Under the pieces are notes generated by a model. That model was not told the DNA's origin, made no database searches, and saw only the letters and a list, made by a program, of their open reading frames with translations. Below are positions 19,186 through 28,287 of a DNA stretch of 31,179 nt, piece by piece (the first letter of the stretch is position 1; every line of letters begins with the position of its first letter). Source of the stretch: a virus (taxonomy: Duplodnaviria > Heunggongvirae > Uroviricota > Caudoviricetes); the IMG/VR virus record IMGVR_UViG_2579779052_000007; one strand, written 5' to 3'. A program made the position numbers and the translations under genes.

Positions 19186-19758
19186 CTATTTATACAATAC
19201 AACACCGCTCTTTTTAGTTATATATGTGCAGTTCGATGGTATATCTTTATTTATAAAAGACATTGCACCTATTTTTACATTATCCCCAATTTTACGTGAT
19301 AATCCAATGATGCAACAATTAGCTCCGATATCAACGTTACTACCAATTTTTACTCTTGAACCAGGCATGTCACCATCTATCTGTCCAATGGTAGTATTCT
19401 GTCGTAACACCAGATTTTCACCAGCATCAACAGCAAAATGAACAACAATTCCAGCATGATGGGGAATTGTTAACCCTTTTCCAATATTTGCGCCCAATCC
19501 AATTTCACAACCAAATTTGTTAATTATTTTACTGTTTAACTTTTTGGCTGCTTTCTTATGTAATTTATTACCATTAATATACATTTCGTTAGCCAACCGC
19601 CACCAGAAAAGGAAATTCCGGTTACGCTGTTTTTTCTCTCTTAAAAGCCTCCAGATATCCATACGTTTCCGCCGAATTACTTCATATTTCCAGAAGTTTT
19701 TTAAATTAGTAGAGTCCCCAAATAAAACAAAGTGAATTGCCATTAAGTAAGACAGCAC
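19186..19758 (-). CDS. Hexapeptide-repeat (left-handed beta-helix) acetyltransferase moron
   Basis: AT-rich gene on the opposite strand; repeated G.N..IG hexapeptide pattern; GTG start at 19758 with AAGGAG RBS preferred over the upstream track ATG. Confidence 0.7.
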   Translation of the reverse strand: MLSYLMAIHFVLFGDSTNLKNFWKYEVIRRKRMDIWRLLREKKQRNRNFLFWWRLANEMYINGNKLHKKAAKKLNSKIINKFGCEIGLGANIGKGLTIPHHAGIVVHFAVDAGENLVLRQNTTIGQIDGDMPGSRVKIGSNVDIGANCCIIGLSRKIGDNVKIGAMSFINKDIPSNCTYITKKSGVVLYK

Positions 19759-19914
19759 GATAATCTCCTTAATTATTATTTCAGACCACACATATTATAA
19801 GGTTAAGAGATTATAAAATCCTGTTGTTTGTTATTCAAAAACAATTTTCTGAGAAGGACATACAACAGCAAGTCGCCAGTCACCTTCATCAGGAAATTGG
19901 CGACATACGTTAAA

Positions 19915-20409
19915 TCAGAGCAGCCCCTTAACTGAGCTGGTCGCGCTATTAAGGGATGATGTCACCTTATCTTTGAAGCCGGACAACATATCGCTGAACG
20001 ATGAGGATTGCAGGCGCTCCCGCAAATCCTCATCACAGCGTTCAAGAGTCAGTGAAAATTCTATCTTTTTCGCCTTACCGTAGCGATCAAACTCGGAGCG
20101 GGTCGTATTCGTTTCGGTCAGGACATACATGCCGTAAATCTGCCCGACGCCATCAATCAGAGGCCAGGGCCGTCCTGTATACGCCTGCGTGGTCAGCAGA
20201 GACAGCGACACTTCGCCACCTGTAATTTCAGGATAAAGCACACCAGAAAGAACGATGCGATCATCACCTGCACCGATATACTGCCAGCTTGCTGAACGGT
20301 TAACGCGTTCATTTTTCACATGCCGCCAGCTTTTGTTTTGCTGTAACTGCTGATGCGGCAGCGTGCGCAGCTCAAAAACAAACATGCCATAGATCATCAT
20401 CATGGCCAT
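19915..20409 (-). CDS. U: Tail protein, P2 gpU-like
   Basis: 164 aa; immediately downstream of the tape-measure gene on the minus strand. Confidence 0.75.
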   Translation of the reverse strand: MAMMMIYGMFVFELRTLPHQQLQQNKSWRHVKNERVNRSASWQYIGAGDDRIVLSGVLYPEITGGEVSLSLLTTQAYTGRPWPLIDGVGQIYGMYVLTETNTTRSEFDRYGKAKKIEFSLTLERCDEDLRERLQSSSFSDMLSGFKDKVTSSLNSATSSVKGLL

Positions 20410-20415
20410 GACTCC

Positions 20416-23259
20416 TCAATCTTTATCGTAAAAACTGCCACGCCCGGCACGGGCGCGCCGTTCCATTTCTGCCCTGACCATTTCACCGACCAGTTTCGCC
20501 AGTTCGCGGGGATTCTGCGTAACAACGTTATGCAGATGAACATGAATTTCACCGCCAAATCTGGAGACAGCAGGCTCCCGATTACGGGAAGCTGCAGGAA
20601 CTGATGCCACTGGCGATCGTATGGCCTCCGCCACCGGGCGGGAGCTGGCCGCAACAACAGGGACCAGCGCCGGAGGCAGCGGAGCCGGGACTACGGGTGT
20701 GATATTAATTGCGGGGGCAGGCTTACTGACCTGCGCAATCTTCCGCTCCTGCCACTCCCCACGAACAGCAAGTGCGCGGGGCAGGTTCTTAAAGACAATA
20801 TCGCCAGGGCCAATGCGTTTTTTCGTCTCATCAACCAGCTTACCTGTGTTATCAGCAATTTTGCTGAGTCTGCGTAGCGTCCCGGTATTGCTGTCTGTGA
20901 GCGGTTTGTTGTCTTTGGGTTTATCACCTCCGGTGCCATTGCCATTTTCCACAGGCTTCGGCGGATTGATTTTCGCCAGGTCCCCCTGAAGTAAGGCAAC
21001 CTTATCCTGAAGAATGGCCGCACGCTGTGCGTCTTCGATTTTCTTGCGCGCCCTTTCCGCTTCATCCGGAAGGACGCCAAGTTTTTCAAGTATCCACGCC
21101 AGCGTATCCAGTAGCATTTTTGCAGGTGTCAGAACAAGTTGTAACGCACCGCCAAGAACGTTACCGAATATCTCGCCAGCACTGGTACATTTATCCAGCG
21201 TTTCCTTGCTGGACTCCATCGGTGACAGCAGCGATTTAAACCAGTTAAACACCTGGCTGATCCCGCTTCCGATTGCGTCAAAAACAGGGCCAAACCGTTC
21301 AAAGGTTTCACGCAACGGGTTCAGCCTTTCCATAATCCCGCTGAACACCCCGGCAAAAAATGCCCTGATGGGATCCCAGTATTTCCAGATAAGGACGGCA
21401 GCTCCGGCAAGCGCAGCCACGATAAGACCAACCGGACTGAACAGCGCCCCGATAGCGCCTCCCAGTAAAGAAACGGAACCCGTCACCATTCCCCATAGTG
21501 CTGGCAGGACCCTGACAGCATTCATTGATCCGGTCAGGAGAGAAAAACCAAGACGCAGTTTTGCCAGCGGACCAGCAAGCACACCAATAGCCAGCGACAA
21601 CGAGCCAACCGTTGCAGTCATTGCCAGCAACGCACCGCCTGCTATCAGTAGCTGGCGCGTCAGTGCCGGATGGGCCTGCGCCAGCGCCGTCACCCTTGAT
21701 ACCACCCGCGTGAGCCACTGCGTGACAGAACGCAGCGGACCGTCAATCAGATCTGCAATGCGGATGCGCAACCCTTCCCATGCACTGCCGAGTGATTTCA
21801 GATCGCCGTCAAGGTTGTTGGCCATAACCTTTGCTGTGCGTTCAGCCTCACCGCGCGCGCCTTCAAGTTCTTTTCTCAGTTTGGGTAAGGAACCGTCACC
21901 CACTGCATCAACGAGCGCCATAAACGATGTGAAAGCCTCTTCTCCGGCAATGTCCTTAAAGAACGATACCCGGTCAACTTCCCCGTATTTGCGGGTGGCT
22001 TTATAAAGGTCGGCCAGCACATCCTCCATCGGGCGCATTTTACCCCCGGCATCCGAGACGGACACGCCCAGCTCTTTCAGAGCTTCTGCCGCCGCCTTTG
22101 GCGGTGATGCCAGACGAGCCAGGCTGGCACGCATTGCCGTCCCGGCATCACTCCCTCTGATGCCCATATTCGCCAGCACACCAGCCATCGCTGCGGCCTG
22201 CTCCAGCGATATTCCCAGCTTACCCGCCACCGGACCTGCATATTTCATGGTTTCGCCCAGTGCGCGAAGGTCAGTGTTGGTACGGGTAAACGCTGCGGTG
22301 AGTGTGTCACCGACCCGGTCCATCTGGTCAGCAGAAAGGCCGAACTGCGTCAGGATATTTGAGCCAATATCTGCCGTCTCGCCGAGATCCATACCGCCAG
22401 CCGTTGCCATGCTCAGCACTCCGGGAAGCGCAGCCTGAATGGCCTGCGGTGTGAAGCCTGCCATTGCAAGAAATGCCTGCCCACTGGCGGCATCGCCTGC
22501 GGTGAACTGCGTTTCAGAGCCAAGTTTTAACGCCTGCTCACGCAGCGCCTTAAACTGCGGGCTGTTCTGGTCGATTCGCGTCAGCGCCTGAACGCGGGAC
22601 ATCTCTTTGCCGAACCCGATCGCGGGCTGCAAAAAACGCCCGGCAGCATAGCCGCCCGCCGCTGCCGCACCAATTGCCAGCGCACCACCTGTTTTCAGTT
22701 TTCCCGCGGTTTCCTGCGCGCGCGAATACCACTCACGCGCCCGCGTTACACGCGCAAGCGCCTGCCGTTCGCGTTCAAGCTGGTTGTTGTACTGTTCGGT
22801 GCGTCTGATGGCCTGCTGGATGGTGTTATCGCTGCCTGTCAGGGAAATGCCGTGGCGTTTCAGCTCTCCGCCAAGCTCCCGCATTTTCTGAATTTCCCGT
22901 GTGCGCGATTCATTCAGGCGTTCAAGCCGGGTGCTTAACTGCTGCATCAGCTTTTGTTGTTTTTCGCTGAGCACTGTACCCGTGCGTTGTAACTGATTAA
23001 GGGCGTTAAGCTGGCGTCGTGCTTTCACGATACCCGCATCCGCTTTACTGACAGCGTCGCGGGCGCGCTCAAATGAACGAGCCTGACGCTCGAGATTTTT
23101 AATCGCCCCCTGCGTTCGCTGGATGGAGTCACCAAACTGCCCCATCAGGCGGCGGGCGTTTTCGGCAGGCCGGGTCAGCCTGTCAACGGCGCTGAAAGCG
23201 ACCCGGATATCAAGAGTCTTCATTGTCTGCATTCCCGCTGCGAAGTGCCGCCCGCTCAC
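20416..23259 (-). CDS. T: Tail tape measure protein, P2 gpT-like
   Basis: Long alpha-helical, Gly/Ala-rich protein; true start probably at one of the internal ATGs at 23232 or 23223. Confidence 0.8.
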   Translation of the reverse strand: MSGRHFAAGMQTMKTLDIRVAFSAVDRLTRPAENARRLMGQFGDSIQRTQGAIKNLERQARSFERARDAVSKADAGIVKARRQLNALNQLQRTGTVLSEKQQKLMQQLSTRLERLNESRTREIQKMRELGGELKRHGISLTGSDNTIQQAIRRTEQYNNQLERERQALARVTRAREWYSRAQETAGKLKTGGALAIGAAAAGGYAAGRFLQPAIGFGKEMSRVQALTRIDQNSPQFKALREQALKLGSETQFTAGDAASGQAFLAMAGFTPQAIQAALPGVLSMATAGGMDLGETADIGSNILTQFGLSADQMDRVGDTLTAAFTRTNTDLRALGETMKYAGPVAGKLGISLEQAAAMAGVLANMGIRGSDAGTAMRASLARLASPPKAAAEALKELGVSVSDAGGKMRPMEDVLADLYKATRKYGEVDRVSFFKDIAGEEAFTSFMALVDAVGDGSLPKLRKELEGARGEAERTAKVMANNLDGDLKSLGSAWEGLRIRIADLIDGPLRSVTQWLTRVVSRVTALAQAHPALTRQLLIAGGALLAMTATVGSLSLAIGVLAGPLAKLRLGFSLLTGSMNAVRVLPALWGMVTGSVSLLGGAIGALFSPVGLIVAALAGAAVLIWKYWDPIRAFFAGVFSGIMERLNPLRETFERFGPVFDAIGSGISQVFNWFKSLLSPMESSKETLDKCTSAGEIFGNVLGGALQLVLTPAKMLLDTLAWILEKLGVLPDEAERARKKIEDAQRAAILQDKVALLQGDLAKINPPKPVENGNGTGGDKPKDNKPLTDSNTGTLRRLSKIADNTGKLVDETKKRIGPGDIVFKNLPRALAVRGEWQERKIAQVSKPAPAINITPVVPAPLPPALVPVVAASSRPVAEAIRSPVASVPAASRNREPAVSRFGGEIHVHLHNVVTQNPRELAKLVGEMVRAEMERRARAGRGSFYDKD

Positions 23260-23424
23260 GCCAGCTAACCACTTCGCCGGGCGTCATCATGAAGATTTCG
23301 GCGGGCGACCAGTTAAAAATAACGGCAATATCTGCCACAAAGTCTTCTATGTGCTCAAAGCACACAACCGTGATCAGGCTTCCGTCGCCTGTTCGTTCTT
23401 CCCGCCAGAGTCCGCACCGCTCAA
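23210..23424 (-). CDS. E': E' extension reached by programmed -1 frameshift (gives the E+E' fusion)
   Basis: The -1 frame opens directly after the minus-strand heptamer and continues ERCGLWREERTGDG...WSPAEIFMMTPGEVVSWRERAAL to a stop at 23210-23212. Confidence 0.6.
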
Positions 23425-23739
23425 AAAATTTACGGCAACCACACATAACTGAATAAAGTCACGGGATGCCATTTTTTTGATCGTCACTTCATCCAGTCGC
23501 GGTGATGTCACGCGTGACAGCAACGTAAACATGGATTCCGCTTTCAGATTCAGCACATCAGACAGCGACAAATCTCGCAGAGATCCAGCCTGCTCAATAG
23601 CCCCGGTGATCTCCACATACGTGATTTTTTCGCCGCCTCGCTCAATTGGTTGGGTAAGTTTTACACCACGCTCACTGGTTTCTTTCACAGTGTCAGCAAC
23701 TACCGTGTTTTCGGTATCGATGTTTTTCGTCTCTTTCAT
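23374..23739 (-). CDS. E: Tail assembly chaperone, P2 gpE-like
   Basis: 121-aa ORF between the tube and tape-measure genes; contains the T TTT TTG slippery heptamer near its 3' end. Confidence 0.7.
   Translation of the reverse strand: MKETKNIDTENTVVADTVKETSERGVKLTQPIERGGEKITYVEITGAIEQAGSLRDLSLSDVLNLKAESMFTLLSRVTSPRLDEVTIKKMASRDFIQLCVVAVNFLSGADSGGKNEQATEA
23422..23428 (-). other. Slippery heptamer T TTT TTG for the E/E' -1 frameshift
   Basis: Plus-strand CAAAAAA at 23422-23428; in the E frame the minus strand reads AAT TTT TTG. Confidence 0.6.
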
Positions 23740-23793
23740 CAGGAAACTCCTTTCAGTCAGAGGCGACGCACTGCGCCGCCTGCATATTACTTA

Positions 23794-24306
23794 TCAGCCA
23801 AGCCCGAGCGCGGAACGGATGCGATCGGGCACAATGTCCTTGCCGTCCTTCCGGTAAATGAAGTTCAGCAGGTCAATCTCCCACAACGGGCGATCGTTAA
23901 CACTCAGCTTGTAGTAGGTGTTTTTAATGGCGTAAGTGTGTGATGTGGCTTCGCCCTGTTTGGCTTCCCCCATATCAATTTCCGTCACACGTCCGCGCAT
24001 TTCGACTTCATACAGGTCGCTTTCTGCATCGGTGTAATATTCACCCGCAAAACGCAGCAGCGTGCCGTCAATCGTGCCGCCATACTTAAGGAACAGCTCA
24101 CGAACTGCGCCCCCCATGACAAAGCTCGCATCAAGCGCGGAGTCGTCCAGACCGAGATCAATACTTACCGCACCCATCATGCCACCACCCCGGTAGCTGT
24201 CGGTTTTGCGCGTCAGCTTAGGCAGAGTGACGGACGTCACCTTACCCACTTCGTTTTCACCATCCACAAACAGCGTAAAAAAGCGAAGATGTTTTGGTAC
24301 AGCCAT
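23794..24306 (-). CDS. FII: Tail tube protein, P2 gpFII-like
   Basis: 170 aa; directly follows the sheath gene with overlapping start and stop. Confidence 0.85.
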   Translation of the reverse strand: MAVPKHLRFFTLFVDGENEVGKVTSVTLPKLTRKTDSYRGGGMMGAVSIDLGLDDSALDASFVMGGAVRELFLKYGGTIDGTLLRFAGEYYTDAESDLYEVEMRGRVTEIDMGEAKQGEATSHTYAIKNTYYKLSVNDRPLWEIDLLNFIYRKDGKDIVPDRIRSALGLG

Positions 24307-25490
24307 CAGGCACCTCCCAGCACCGCAAATGCGGGTTCAAAGTATTCATCAGTAAACGTCTGGTAAAGCTCCATGTCTTCCAGTGGCGGAACGGGCGTAT
24401 ATTTGTAGCGAATACGCACACGCCCCTGACGTAAATCCGTGGTGCTGTTATCCACCACGTCATACCAGCACTCCGCGCCAATCAGTTTCCCGGCAGTAAC
24501 CAGCGAATCCAGTTTTGCCCTGATGGCACTGATAACATCCTTCACGTTCGCAGGCGTCAGTGGACTGTCGATGGTTTCAAACTGCGCTTCCGCAATTGAA
24601 TCAGCCAGCACCTGTGCGGTTCGGGTATACACCTCAAAGATGTAGGCGTTCGTTTCCGGTGTGCGGTTGCCCCAGAAGCGGAACCCGTTGCGACGAATAA
24701 TGGTCGTGATTTCTTTGTTGTTGAGGCTGTTGGCATCACTGTCTTCGGCCTGCAACGACCAGAAAACATGCCTGGACATCCCCAGCACATTTTTAACAGG
24801 AACGTTGGACAGCGATTTGTGCCAGCCCTGCTCATGGTCAATGTACGCACGAAGGCCGCACGCATAGGCAGGCGCGGGGAACGTTTCGTTTTTGCCACTT
24901 TTCGGGTTGTAGGCGATGAAGTCCGGCCATAAGAGCATCACCTCACGTTCGTTGAATTTCTGGCGGTAGGTAATTGCCTCAGCCATCGTGTTACAGTCAT
25001 GACATGAGGCATACACAAACGCGCGCAGTTTACCCGCAATCACGCACAGGGATTTTGTCACCGCCTCCGTGTCCAGCTCCGGCGCGGCCAGAATACGCGG
25101 ACGGTATCCGATGCTTTCATCCTGCTCTGCAACAAGCAGCGCATACATCCCCGTATAGCTGCCGTCAGATTCAGAACCACCGATAACCAGTTGATCCTGC
25201 GTCTTACCGCCTTCTTCTTTGTGTTCAGCCACGCGAACGACGATCACTTTTGTGCTCACCTGGTCTGCAATAGCCTTAAGCGCACGATAAAGCGTCCCCG
25301 TAGTCCCGCATTTTCCCAGCACGTCATTGACGCGGGTCAGCAGTGTGGGCTTGTTCAGCGGGAACAGCTCCGCGTCCGCATCATCCGCCGTTGCCACGAT
25401 ACCGATAACACTGGAATCAACATCATTAATCGCTGTTACCAGGTCGGTACTTTCCGTAACACGGGCACCATGAAAACGAGTTTCACTCAT
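24306..25490 (-). CDS. FI: Contractile tail sheath protein, P2 gpFI-like
   Basis: 394 aa (P2 FI is about 396); conserved sheath-like C-terminus. Confidence 0.85.
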   Translation of the reverse strand: MSETRFHGARVTESTDLVTAINDVDSSVIGIVATADDADAELFPLNKPTLLTRVNDVLGKCGTTGTLYRALKAIADQVSTKVIVVRVAEHKEEGGKTQDQLVIGGSESDGSYTGMYALLVAEQDESIGYRPRILAAPELDTEAVTKSLCVIAGKLRAFVYASCHDCNTMAEAITYRQKFNEREVMLLWPDFIAYNPKSGKNETFPAPAYACGLRAYIDHEQGWHKSLSNVPVKNVLGMSRHVFWSLQAEDSDANSLNNKEITTIIRRNGFRFWGNRTPETNAYIFEVYTRTAQVLADSIAEAQFETIDSPLTPANVKDVISAIRAKLDSLVTAGKLIGAECWYDVVDNSTTDLRQGRVRIRYKYTPVPPLEDMELYQTFTDEYFEPAFAVLGGA

Positions 25491-25647
25491 AGCTTCAGCC
25501 CCTTGTATCCGTTAAATGATTCGGCAACAATCATCACCCACCACGCGCGTAATCTCACCCCTGCGCCGTTCTCCCGCCACGGCGACAACAAAAAGCAGTA
25601 ACCCCCTATGCACGCACATGCGACCATGCCGCACAGGGAGGGAACAG

Positions 25648-26748
25648 ATGACCGATACCACCATGCAATTGCTCAGTCAGAGCACAGACCCCGTGAAAAT
25701 GCCGGATTTTGATATTCTCGCGGAGGGGGAAACACTGTCCGGCGTGGCAGAGCGCCTGATGAGCCTGTCACTGACCGACAACCGGGGATTTGAAGCGGAC
25801 CTGCTCACCATCACGCTGGATGATGCGGATGGTCAGTTGCAGCTACCGCCACGGGGCGCGCGCCTGACGGTTCTCATTGGCTGGAAAGGAGAACCGCTGA
25901 CAGAAAAAGGCACTTACATTGTTGATGAAATCGCTCACGAAGGACCGCCGGACAGGCTGACTGTTTCAGCCAGAAGCGCAGATTTTCGGGATGAATTTAA
26001 CGTTAAACGTGAGGTGTCCTGGCATGATGTGACCGTTGAGCGCGTGGTATCCGCCATCGCTCATCGGTACGGTCTGAAACCACAAATCAGCGAAATGCTG
26101 ATGGATATTGAAATCGACCACGCCGACCAGACCGAAGAAAGCGACATGTCCTTCCTTACGCGCATGGCGGAAATGCTGGGCGCAATCACTACGGTAAAAA
26201 GCAGTAATCTGTTATTCATCATGCCAGGCGGTGGCGTGAACGCACAGGGCCAGCCGTTGCCATCGTTCGCCATCACGCGCAGCAGTGGCGATCGCCATCA
26301 GTTCCGCATTGCTGACCGCGAAGCGTATACGGGGGTACGTGCTTACTGGCTTGATCTTAATTACGGGAAAAAGAAAAAAGTCAGCGTGAAACGCCGCAAA
26401 CCGAAAAAGGAGAAAAGCAGCAGCCGTGAAGGTGACTATATGGAAGGTGCGGAAGGCAACGTGTTTGTGTTACGCAAGACTTATCAGAACGAGCAGGCAG
26501 CAAGACGTGCAGCGGCGGCAAAGTGGCAGCAGCTACAACGCGGAGCCGCATCATTCTCCATCACGCTGGCGCGTGGACGCGCAGAACTCTATCCCGAAAT
26601 GCATGGCACGGTGACAGGCTTCAAAAGTGACATCGATAATCAGGACTGGATTATTGCAAAAGCCGAGCACACCATTGATAACAGCGGCTTTACCACACAG
26701 CTTGAGCTTGAAGCAAAAATCCCGGAATGGATAGCAGAAACAGAATGA
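25648..26748 (+). CDS. D: Tail protein, P2 gpD-like
   Basis: GGGAGGG RBS before the ATG at 25648 (the track ORF extends to 25516); about 366 aa; lies upstream of ogr. Confidence 0.75.
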   Translation: MTDTTMQLLSQSTDPVKMPDFDILAEGETLSGVAERLMSLSLTDNRGFEADLLTITLDDADGQLQLPPRGARLTVLIGWKGEPLTEKGTYIVDEIAHEGPPDRLTVSARSADFRDEFNVKREVSWHDVTVERVVSAIAHRYGLKPQISEMLMDIEIDHADQTEESDMSFLTRMAEMLGAITTVKSSNLLFIMPGGGVNAQGQPLPSFAITRSSGDRHQFRIADREAYTGVRAYWLDLNYGKKKKVSVKRRKPKKEKSSSREGDYMEGAEGNVFVLRKTYQNEQAARRAAAAKWQQLQRGAASFSITLARGRAELYPEMHGTVTGFKSDIDNQDWIIAKAEHTIDNSGFTTQLELEAKIPEWIAETE

Positions 26749-27162
26749 GCAAATTAGATGTATTGACTCAAACCAGAACTGACACACTCACAGCACAGTG
26801 CCAGACCCAATCTGGCAGCCCGCTTTGTGCCTAGAGCAGGTGTTGCTTATGTAACAGTTAATCCACGGATAGTGGTCATGAATGCTGGTTGAAGTTGTAT
26901 TGCCATGAGTGGTCAATTAGGGACTCACTTATTATCGCGTGCTCACCATTGATGGGTAAGATCATGCATTTCGGCTACTGTACTTCGCGAATCCTCCGCA
27001 CACAGGCAACACCTGATTTAAGAACAGAGGGAGATGATGACGCAAGGAAGATTTATTATCGTGCATGTGGCAGATGATCTTTTAGCTGCCGGAGTGATAA
27101 ATTACACCTATTTTCGATAAGTGTTTTTGTTATAGAACATTAATTTCGTGGGAAACAATAAA

Positions 27163-28287
27163 GTGAAATTAGGAAGAAATGATAAGTGCTGGTGTAATTC
27201 AGGACTTAAGTATAAAAAGTGCCATCTTGGTCGAGATCGTGAAACTCCGGTATCCAAAGCCGAGGCACTGAAATTTTCAAAGTCTCTCTCGCAGAGAAAG
27301 GCATGTTATGCGCCAGCATCCATGCACGAAGATTGTGATAAACGCATCGTTCAGGCGCATACGATATCTAAGAGCAGTAGCCTTAAGGCGATCGCCGACT
27401 CCAGCAATCACGTCATGGGGGTGATAATGAACTTAGCAAGCCTGATGAGAAACAACGGAAAATGGCTTCCCGAGAAGATCGGTATCAATCAGGCATCCAC
27501 TTTTACAGGATTTTGTGCAGTTCATGACAGAATCTTATTTTCATGCCTAGAGAACGAAAAATTTACAGGCACGGACGAGCAGTGCTTTGCCTTAATGTTT
27601 CGTTCATTGTCTAAAGAAATTTATGCCAAAGAAGGGGGAGTGCTATCTTCTGATTTTGCTAAAAATGCCGATAAAGGAAAGCTACAAGTTGAACAGTATT
27701 ATATTCAGAAATTAATCGACCAGCACCAAAGTGGCTTAAATGCAGCAATAATTGAATTAAATAATCTTAAAACTAGCCTCGACCGCATCCTACTTAGCAG
27801 GCAATTTTCAGAAATTGAAAGTGTTATCTTCACTTTTGCAGAGCCTTTACCAATTGTAGTTTCGTCAATTCTTTCACCGGAGAGGGATTTCGATGGGACC
27901 AAAATTCAGGATTTGAGCGATCTTACAGTGTCGGCGGAACAAGTATGTTTCAATGCTTTTTCCTGCGGAGGTAAGGGATATGTAGTGTTCAGTTGGCTGA
28001 GAACTTCAACAATTATCAGACGTTTTATACGGACACTAATTAAGATCCCAGCTAACAGGATGTTCAATACCCTTCTGTATTTTTTCTTCACAAAGGCCGA
28101 AAATACATATTCATCCCCTGAGTGGTGGGACAGGCTCAGTGATAAACAGCGAGAGAATATCGGCAACATGATTATGTCAGGGGTTGAATTTTTTGGCATA
28201 CCTACATCACAGGTTGATCATTCCGTTGATTATAACGCCGCTGCACTTGAAGAGATAACATGCAGCAACAACGAAATTTGCAGCTGA
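27163..28287 (+). CDS. SEC-C-motif protein of unknown function (AT-rich moron between D and ogr)
   Basis: N-terminal KLGRNDKCWCNSGLKYKKCH resembles the SecA C-terminal zinc motif; start must be a GTG (27163, or 27148 as in the track) because the first in-frame ATG lies after the motif. Confidence 0.5.
   Translation: MKLGRNDKCWCNSGLKYKKCHLGRDRETPVSKAEALKFSKSLSQRKACYAPASMHEDCDKRIVQAHTISKSSSLKAIADSSNHVMGVIMNLASLMRNNGKWLPEKIGINQASTFTGFCAVHDRILFSCLENEKFTGTDEQCFALMFRSLSKEIYAKEGGVLSSDFAKNADKGKLQVEQYYIQKLIDQHQSGLNAAIIELNNLKTSLDRILLSRQFSEIESVIFTFAEPLPIVVSSILSPERDFDGTKIQDLSDLTVSAEQVCFNAFSCGGKGYVVFSWLRTSTIIRRFIRTLIKIPANRMFNTLLYFFFTKAENTYSSPEWWDRLSDKQRENIGNMIMSGVEFFGIPTSQVDHSVDYNAAALEEITCSNNEICS

Follow-up and report, generated by a model that had tools for sequence, protein, structure and literature searches.

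The question

Does the small open reading frame (ORF) between the tail tube gene and the tape-measure gene of an Escherichia coli prophage give rise to one protein, or to two proteins that are made by a programmed -1 frameshift as in phage P2? The question is raised by a locus on the minus strand of a viral DNA of 31,179 nucleotides (IMGVR_UViG_2579779052_000007), which is called the window in the following. The window is a Xuanwuvirus (P88-like, Peduoviridae) prophage of E. coli. The region that includes the locus shares 98.9% identity with P88, and the range for P88 and 500465-2, both of them inducible phages, is 98.9 to 99.5%. Among 5426 complete E. coli genomes, about 1370, or roughly one quarter, carry the region with the frameshift site retained. 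P88 and PhiSM are active phages, and a frameshift is mentioned neither in the P88 paper nor in the PhiSM paper.

Organization of the tail genes and of the slip site

The genes are read in the order tube (FII), E, E′ and tape measure (T), and E occupies the place of the small ORF that a P2-type pair has between FII and T. FII (23794..24306, minus strand; PF04985, 7.5e-47) lies directly upstream of E, and T (20416..23223, minus strand) is annotated to encode 935 amino acids from an ATG at 23223 (PF10145 PhageMin_Tail, 3.6e-58). The E-like ORF encodes 121 amino acids (23374..23739, minus strand), begins with ATG and is preceded at a distance of 7 nt by the ribosome-binding site AAGGAG (23747..23752, minus strand). 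An earlier note on this DNA had described the tail module as intact. This holds for all ORFs, and sheath, tube, E′, T, U and D score above the Pfam cut-offs, while E alone stays below (PF10109 Phage_TAC_7, 17.2 bits, cut-off 25). Terminator-like matches in 23100..23900 were discounted, because all of them lie within coding sequence.

Near the 3′ end of E a slippery decamer, A AAT TTT TTG (23422..23431, minus strand), was located by computing its phase, and it aligns with the slip codons of P2, 186 and Wphi. It holds two heptamers that overlap and are both in phase, A AAT TTT (23431..23425) and T TTT TTG (23428..23422), which are read in the E frame of the minus strand as ...GCC GTA AAT TTT TTG AGC GGT... 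The downstream heptamer had been put forward in the earlier note, and it is indeed in phase within the 121-aa ORF, with TTT and TTG as the underlying zero-frame codons of an X XXY YYZ motif. The upstream heptamer was missing from that note.

The -1 frame runs to a TGA at 23212..23210, as had been claimed, and overlaps the start of T by 14 nt, the ATG of T being situated at 23223..23221 and the E′ stop 11 nt beyond this start codon. The claim that the -1 frame opens immediately after the heptamer had to be corrected: it is open from 23458 already, 30 nt upstream. Zero and -1 frames are thus both open over 82 nt (23377..23458, minus strand), and a -1 shift anywhere in this stretch would lead into E′. 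The E′ extension starts by a second reading of G23422 and comprises 70 codons and the TGA (23210..23422, minus strand), so that the computed fusion after a -1 slip has 176 amino acids (23210..23739, minus strand).

The motif is not informative on its own. TTTTTTG occurs 17 times in the window versus 9.5 +/- 3 expected copies, and the decamer (AAATTTTTTG) occurs once versus 0.26 expected copies, with at least one copy in 18 of 100 shuffles. By itself the T TTT TTG heptamer is not beyond chance and carries no weight; the significance of the site stems from its phase, its position and its homology.

Homology of E and E′

Profile searches revealed that E matches phrog_103 ("tail protein") with 3.2e-35. 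The search of the -1 extension with the Phage_P2_GpE profile, which had been suggested as a check of gpE′ homology, gave a clear match to PF06528 (47.4 bits, cut-off 23, E 1.3e-12) that spans positions 1–36 of the 37 profile positions. The extension also matched phrog_1756 with 6.2e-39, and residues 1–68 of the extension were covered. In a BLASTP comparison the fusion aligned with P2 gpE+E′ across the junction (9e-26, 31% identity), and its residues 23–106 paired with residues 4–85 of P2 gpE, whereas tblastn of the fusion in relatives gave matches that were split over two frames. The slip codons fall at the homologous F-L position of P2 gpE+E′, and the slip residue F105 hardly varies in an alignment of 14 phages. 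The P2 E/E′ mechanism that had been assigned to the locus is therefore well borne out by these matches. An NCBIfam scan found no model for E, E′ or even P2 E+E′, and a profile search of the PDB yielded no relative or solved structure (E-value of the best match, 0.76).

Conservation of the slip site and search for stimulatory elements

The conservation of the site was analysed in an HMM-anchored survey of 178 related loci. At 171 of the 178 loci, E′ is in the -1 frame relative to E and the overlap of the two contains one or more X XXY YYZ heptamers in phase; an E/E′ overlap devoid of an in-phase heptamer was not found among the 178. The sequence NNT TTT TTR is present at the homologous F-L codons of nearly all of about 140 distinct loci, including P2, Wphi, 186 and Milagro. 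In these four phages a frameshift at the homologous site has been annotated or proven; the records read "gpE+E', -1 translational frameshift" for Wphi, "probably produced by a translational frameshift" for 186 and "frameshift product" for Milagro. The last base of the codon before TTT is always T, irrespective of the encoded amino acid. In 15 window-type loci the context is identical and both heptamers are perfectly conserved. The conservation of the heptamer in homologues, against which the earlier claim was to be judged, was thus verified, with the exception of the nearest sister lineage (P884B11, 503458, 520873 and PhiSM; about 85% nucleotide identity). This lineage has AAT TTT ATG, i.e. 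T TTT TTG has vanished by a change of TTG to ATG, and the overlapping A AAT TTT has been kept.

A downstream stimulatory structure, which had also been suggested, was searched for in the 62 nt and the 122 nt that follow the site and in 134 unique homologous loci, and nothing convincing was found. The 62 nt fold no better than shuffled sequences (z +1.64), and the z of -2.75 for 122 nt is owed to distant pairs and a hairpin. This hairpin (GUGUGCUUUGAGCACAU) was rejected as a classical stimulator, because it is about 55 nt away from the site and thus too distant. The mean z of the 134 loci was -0.25. Neither a hairpin or pseudoknot 5–9 nt past the heptamer nor a Shine-Dalgarno (SD)-like sequence 6–17 nt upstream of it, as in dnaX and IS3-type systems, could be detected in the window. 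The upstream anti-SD duplex energy was -2.7 kcal/mol for the window type, -8.6 kcal/mol for P2 and -6.9 kcal/mol for 186, compared with a control mean of -2.2 kcal/mol, and an SD-like upstream element is enriched in P2-type loci. The E/E′ frameshift here seems to proceed without an RNA stimulator.

Comparison with known systems

The gene order of the window is the same as that of P2 (gpE/gpE+E′ in the FETUD operon; Christie et al., 2002), Wphi and 186 (orf51/orf52). All of them share T TTT TTG at homologous Phe-Leu codons with slippage in the -1 direction, and an E′ that contains PF06528 and ends few nucleotides inside T. The differences concern dimensions and surroundings. E of the window has an N-terminal extension and 121 amino acids instead of the 91 of P2, the fusion has 176 instead of 142 and a linker between E and E′ that is 10 residues longer, and the overlap of the two frames is 82 nt instead of 34 nt. 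Unlike P2, the window has the additional overlapping heptamer A AAT TTT, and its FI-U block is inverted relative to D-ogr. The SD-like sequence upstream of the sites of P2 and 186 (AAGGTGG/GGTGAT) is absent. About 10% of the P2 product is made as the fusion, which is essential for tail assembly. A review that refers to Christie et al. (2002) gives P2-type frameshifting a 2–3 fold higher efficiency than that of lambda G-T.

In the lambda G/GT class, binding to the tape measure is the task of the short product, and recruitment of the tube protein that of the extension. As a functional class, lambda gpG/gpGT (Levin, 1993; Xu, Hendrix and Duda, 2004, 2013, 2014) resembles the window pair in that two overlapping ORFs are situated upstream of the tape-measure gene, with a putative -1 link in the window. 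Sequence similarity was neither detected nor expected, the lambda heptamer is G GGA AAG, and lambda is a siphovirus, whereas the tail encoded in the window is contractile. The frameshifts of dnaX and IS911/IS3 likewise rely on tandem slippage at an X XXY YYZ heptamer, but their signals include an SD ahead of the heptamer, a hairpin or pseudoknot behind it, or both; neither element is detectable in the window. The closest relatives are Xuanwuvirus P884B11/Citrobacter PhiSM (fusion identity 88%) and Klebsiella Reipivirus (about 53%). Their architecture and the position of the upstream heptamer are like those of the window, but T TTT TTG is missing (AAT TTT ATG and CCT TTC TTG, respectively). P884B11/PhiSM retain A AAT TTT alone and Reipivirus C CCT TTC alone, while the window has both heptamers.

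A probable programmed frameshift and its alternatives

Taken together, it is very probable that E and E+E′ are made by a programmed -1 ribosomal frameshift of the P2 type. A minority of the ribosomes translating E would step back by one nucleotide at A AAT TTT TTG (23431..23422, minus strand) and would read on in the -1 frame as far as 23210, so that the 176-aa E+E′ would be formed next to a more abundant 121-aa E. Jointly, the two would serve as a tape-measure chaperone pair in tail assembly, like P2 gpE/gpE+E′ and lambda gpG/gpGT. The viability of the phages P88 and PhiSM speaks indirectly in favor of a production of the fusion. We infer that the slippage is ribosomal, and likewise its efficiency, the heptamer used and the chaperone function.

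A production of E′ from its own start, without any recoding, would fit the current annotation: RefSeq/PGAP lists a "GpE family phage tail protein" of 51 aa with a GTG start (23210..23365, minus strand), phage records do the same, and GTG 23365 lies in the -1 frame only 9 nt past the E stop. However, no clear SD precedes this GTG, the phrog_1756 alignment begins at the first residue of the extension, 19 codons further upstream, and the annotated starts vary among relatives (51, 39 and 29 aa) while the heptamer is universal. The pattern of substitutions speaks against it as well. Mismatch rates at codon positions 1/2/3, which were derived from pairwise counts that are not phylogenetically independent, were.33/.24/.46 upstream of the slip site,.25/.39/.26 by zero-frame numbering in the overlap, corresponding to positions 2/3/1 of the -1 frame, and.29/.22/.51 in the E′ frame past the E stop. 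By this measure the slip codons are where the codon-position variability passes over to the -1 frame, which has coding periodicity from there on; this argues against an independent initiation of E′. Together with the phrog_1756 alignment from the first extension residue, this switch indicates that E′ is probably read as a continuation of E. Reportedly, E′ of P2 is also made as an extension of E. The 51-aa ORF is thus most likely no independent gene, and such a gene is a very improbable explanation of the locus.

The insertion of one U by RNA polymerase at the T6 run is equally improbable. The homopolymer is present, and runs of T7 and T8 in two close relatives (L107 and L125) demonstrate that its length is unstable, but six T are short for efficient polymerase slippage. 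Furthermore, judged indirectly from relatives, a phased heptamer and not a long homopolymer has been maintained: the run is shortened to T4 in AAATTTTATG and to T3 in CCCTTTCTTG, and both still have a perfect in-phase X XXY YYZ heptamer. Such a phased heptamer is required by tandem tRNA slippage and unneeded by polymerase slippage. It is extremely unlikely that the site is the silent relic of a defective prophage, from which no product is made. The window is a chromosomal prophage, but every tail ORF is intact and has a family match, and the close identity to inducible phages and the preservation in about one quarter of the complete E. coli genomes are also at odds with decay.

Under the preferred ribosomal frameshift, it has to be considered which heptamer is used. 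The products of the two heptamers would differ only at residue 106, which would be Leu or Phe, and the predicted tryptic junction peptides are DFIQLCVVAVNFLER for a slip on T TTT TTG and DFIQLCVVAVNFFER for a slip on A AAT TTT. It is well conceivable, with somewhat less than an even chance, that the main slip occurs at the upstream A AAT TTT (23431..23425) and that T TTT TTG is ancestral and redundant in this lineage. The sister Xuanwuvirus lineage, with the active PhiSM, manages with A AAT TTT alone, and the SD-like element found next to T TTT TTG in P2 and 186 is missing from the window. In addition, H_HH.U_UU.Y motifs, including A_AAU_UUU, are among the most efficient in E. coli, and U_UUU_UUG is not listed among the most efficient ones (Sharma, 2014). 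On the other hand, the proven or annotated P2-type phages have T TTT TTG as their site at the corresponding codons, and the window-type loci have conserved both heptamers without any change. As the sites are consecutive, both may contribute, and we infer that either heptamer or both could be used.

Possible turnover of the slip site and implications

These observations can tentatively be joined in a single reading, which might well be true but is not favored over its negation: the window would capture the intermediate, double-heptamer state of a slip-site turnover. The ancestral P2-type site would be T TTT TTR, usually with an SD-like element ahead of it. An overlapping heptamer would then have been gained one codon upstream, twice independently, as A AAT TTT TTG in P88-type Xuanwuvirus and as C CCT TTT TTG in a Klebsiella/Enterobacter clade. 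Later, sister lineages would have dropped the original site (AAT TTT ATG and CCT TTC TTG) and would now depend solely on the upstream H_HHU_UUY, a motif of higher intrinsic efficiency in E. coli that would come without an SD-like stimulator. If this is true, the ratio of E to E+E′ would be held steady by a trade-off between the strength of the motif and that of the stimulator, and the frameshift product of this prophage would comprise both Leu106 and Phe106 isoforms.

The site is an ordinary further case of a known mechanism, and the knowledge about the mechanism is unchanged. Its main value lies in the annotation of a very common family of E. coli prophages: RefSeq and GenBank have a free-standing 51-aa "GpE family" ORF, and the proper form would be a ribosomal-slippage join that encodes 176 aa. 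The integrity of the tail module is also confirmed, down to its recoding signal. Moreover, the near-universal NNT TTT TTR, the two putative independent shifts of the heptamer by one codon, and the inverse association with the SD-like element make the comparison a small natural experiment on how frameshift signals may evolve while their output is preserved.

Anatomy of the probable frameshift site

The E gene, encoding the putative zero-frame tail chaperone, is located on the minus strand at 23739..23374 (121 aa), with AAGGAG ahead of its ATG start codon. In the E frame the minus strand reads ...TGT GTG GTT GCC GTA AAT TTT TTG AGC GGT GCG.... An earlier note had described a slippery heptamer T TTT TTG in this gene, and direct reading verified its position (23428..23422, minus strand) and phase (X XXY YYZ, zero-frame codons TTT and TTG). 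That description of a single heptamer was correct, but it missed a second, overlapping heptamer, A AAT TTT at 23431..23425 of the same strand, which is also in phase by computation. The -1 frame encoding the extension E' had been said to open immediately after the heptamer; however, computation revealed that it is open already from 23458, 30 nt before the heptamer. As proposed, it runs to 23210 (TGA at 23212..23210) and overlaps the start of the tape-measure gene T, the ATG of which lies at 23223, by 14 nt. The predicted product of a -1 slip at the heptamer is a protein of 176 aa. The TTTTTTG motif alone is without significance; the window contains 17 copies versus 9.5 expected.

Homology and conservation of E and E'

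The suggested profile search verified that the -1 extension has gpE' homology (Pfam Phage_P2_GpE, 47.4 bits, curated cut-off 23, E-value 1.3e-12), and it also matched phrog_1756 (6e-39) from its first residue onwards. The zero-frame product matched phrog_103 (3e-35), while its score against Pfam Phage_TAC_7 was below the cut-off (17.2 versus 25 bits). The conceptual fusion aligned with P2 gpE+E' through the junction (31% identity, 9e-26), and the Phe at the slip site was almost invariant in an alignment of 14 phages. Together with the conservation of the heptamer, these results bear out the claimed match to the P2 E/E' system. The neighbors of the locus are homologues of sheath, tube, tape measure, gpU and gpD.

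Conservation was analyzed with 17 annotated phage loci and a further 160 taken from collections of genomes and viral contigs, in which E and E' were anchored with HMMs built from the alignment. With the window counted, 171 of 178 sequences had E' in the -1 frame of E and one or more X XXY YYZ heptamers in phase within the overlap, and an overlap devoid of a heptamer was not found among the 178. The seven exceptions were truncated contigs, indel-disrupted copies or in-frame fused copies. The homologous codons read NNT TTT TTR almost everywhere. The residue encoded just ahead of TTT varies (N, P, D, G, T, S, A, H, Y or L), yet the final base of this codon is always T, which indicates selection at the level of the nucleotide sequence. 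The homologous site corresponds to the frameshift site given in the annotations of Wphi, 186 and Milagro, and a slip at this site in P2 reproduces the 142-aa E+E'.

Several individual loci (L numbers) deviated. L107 (IMGVR_UViG_2565956773_000017), L125 and L124 are about 72% identical to the fusion of the window and differ only in the length of the T run: L124 has the normal T6, in L107 a T7 places E and E' in one frame (constitutive 184-aa-segment fusion), and in L125 a T8 leads to an E stop directly after the run, with E' at +1. The variants could be homopolymer sequencing errors or genuine run-length variants. In Symbiopectobacterium genomes an indel downstream of the heptamer fuses E and E' in frame (L020, L052) or E/E' is broken (L021), which would fit either decay of the prophages in these symbiont genomes or faulty assembly. 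In the distantly related Mannheimia phage vB_MhM_1127AP1 (L012) the slip site lies about 25 codons further downstream (G GGA AAG / A AAG GGC, close to where E ends), the homologous F-L position reads GAT TTA ATG without a T run, and the record's own note gives the slippery sequence as AGGGAAAG. L019, titled Vagococcus sp. WN89Y, is a 94%-identical copy of the present enterobacterial prophage segment on a 226-kb contig; contamination or mislabelling of this Firmicute-labelled assembly is likely.

Selection on the reading frames and alternative explanations

Pairwise mismatch rates per codon position were determined for about 140 distinct loci; as the pairs are phylogenetically non-independent, the result is qualitative. 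In the 60 nt before the slip codons the rates at positions 1/2/3 were.33/.24/.46 in zero-frame numbering, from the slip codons to the E stop they were.25/.39/.26 in the same numbering, and after the E stop they were.29/.22/.51 in E' numbering. The middle pattern is a -1-frame signature, because zero-frame position 2 corresponds to position 3 of the -1 frame. From the slip site on, 19 codons upstream of GTG 23365, selection thus follows the -1 frame. At this GTG, related records start E' as a separately annotated 51-aa ORF, a "GpE family phage tail protein" without a slippage join. The selection pattern argues for a fusion and against independent initiation of E' at the GTG, which is highly improbable. 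Transcriptional slippage on the T6 run is likewise disfavored, because relatives with T3 or T4 retain a phased heptamer, and there is very little reason to expect it. That the site is a dead relic is the least probable of all. The preferred explanation is ribosomal slippage at the heptamers.

Two heptamers and possible stimulators

As the heptamers overlap, the decamer A AAT TTT TTG gives two consecutive slip opportunities, and residue 106 alone (Phe or Leu) would distinguish their products. H_HH.U_UU.Y heptamers are among the most efficient in E. coli, while U_UU.U_UU.G is not so listed (Sharma et al., 2014). It is plausible, though somewhat less likely than not, that A AAT TTT dominates over T TTT TTG in the window. 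The nearest sister lineage (P884B11, 503458, 520873 and Citrobacter PhiSM, an active, plaque-forming phage; fusion about 88% identical) reads GTA AAT TTT ATG and has lost T TTT TTG, but kept A AAT TTT. The Klebsiella Reipivirus reads CCT TTC TTG, with C CCT TTC as its only slippery heptamer. The nearest relatives of both single-heptamer lineages have the double form, AAATTTTTTG (also the form of the window) in the first case and CCCTTTTTTG in the second. A minor finding of this comparison is the double heptamer, along with the one-codon "hop" that sister lineages show.

The search for a downstream stimulatory structure that had been suggested was negative: folding of the 62 nt past the site was not better than that of shuffled sequences (z +1.64), and the family-wide mean z is -0.25. 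A 122-nt fold had a z of -2.75, owed only to pairing over long distances and to a hairpin some 55 nt from the site. In the stretch 4-19 nt upstream, anti-SD pairing was -2.7 kcal/mol for the window type (within-gene control mean -2.2), in contrast to the stronger pairing of P2 (-8.6) and 186 (-6.9). An SD-like sequence (AAGGTGG, GGTGAT) is present at this distance from T TTT TTR in P2 (L015), 186 (L016) and about 55 other loci, but is absent from the window (23432-23447). It occurs in 56% of the loci with T TTT TTR only (mean -5.9 kcal/mol, 56% at or below -6) versus 0-5% of the loci also or only containing an upstream heptamer (means -1.7 to -2.9). This phylogenetically confounded pattern is suggestive, and there may be a trade-off between stimulator strength and motif strength.

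Gene layout around the locus

The gene order at 19915-26748 differs from the P2 FETUD operon, but is the same as in phage P88. FI-FII-E-E'-T-U (25490..19915, minus) is inverted relative to D (25516/25648..26748, plus), ogr and V-W-J-I-H-tfa (up to 19142, plus). Two apparent cargo genes are present within the tail region. A hexapeptide-repeat "serine O-acetyltransferase" directly follows gpU (19186-19791, minus), where P88 has a DNA invertase, and D is separated from ogr by a "YecA family protein" (27148-28287, plus), where in P88 D is followed by a hok/gef gene. The intergenic stretch from the FII stop to the E start contains an 8-bp hairpin (23761-23781, minus; AGGCGGCG-CAGTG-CGTCGCCT) without a T tract behind it. 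At the same position a partial terminator (tI) is annotated in phage 186 and a rho-independent terminator in the Mannheimia phage, and the hairpin may attenuate transcription into E-T-U.

Lineage and proposed mechanism

The DNA matches a prophage in E. coli SCU-105 at 100% identity and the inducible phages P88 and 500465-2 (genus Xuanwuvirus, family Peduoviridae) at 98.9-99.5%. Of 5426 complete E. coli genomes, about 1370 carry it. Both mechanism and family are already known, and the site is an unannotated but ordinary member within the Xuanwuvirus lineage. Precedents are P2 E/E+E' and lambda G/GT; the details of the P2 frameshift reportedly go back to work by Christie in 2002. Lambda G/GT is the analogue treated in a review, which also cites Christie 2002. 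Taken together, the comparative analysis makes it very probable that tandem tRNAs would slip by -1 on A AAT TTT TTG, and that this slippage would yield both E and E+E' at a constant ratio, serving the chaperoning of the tape measure.
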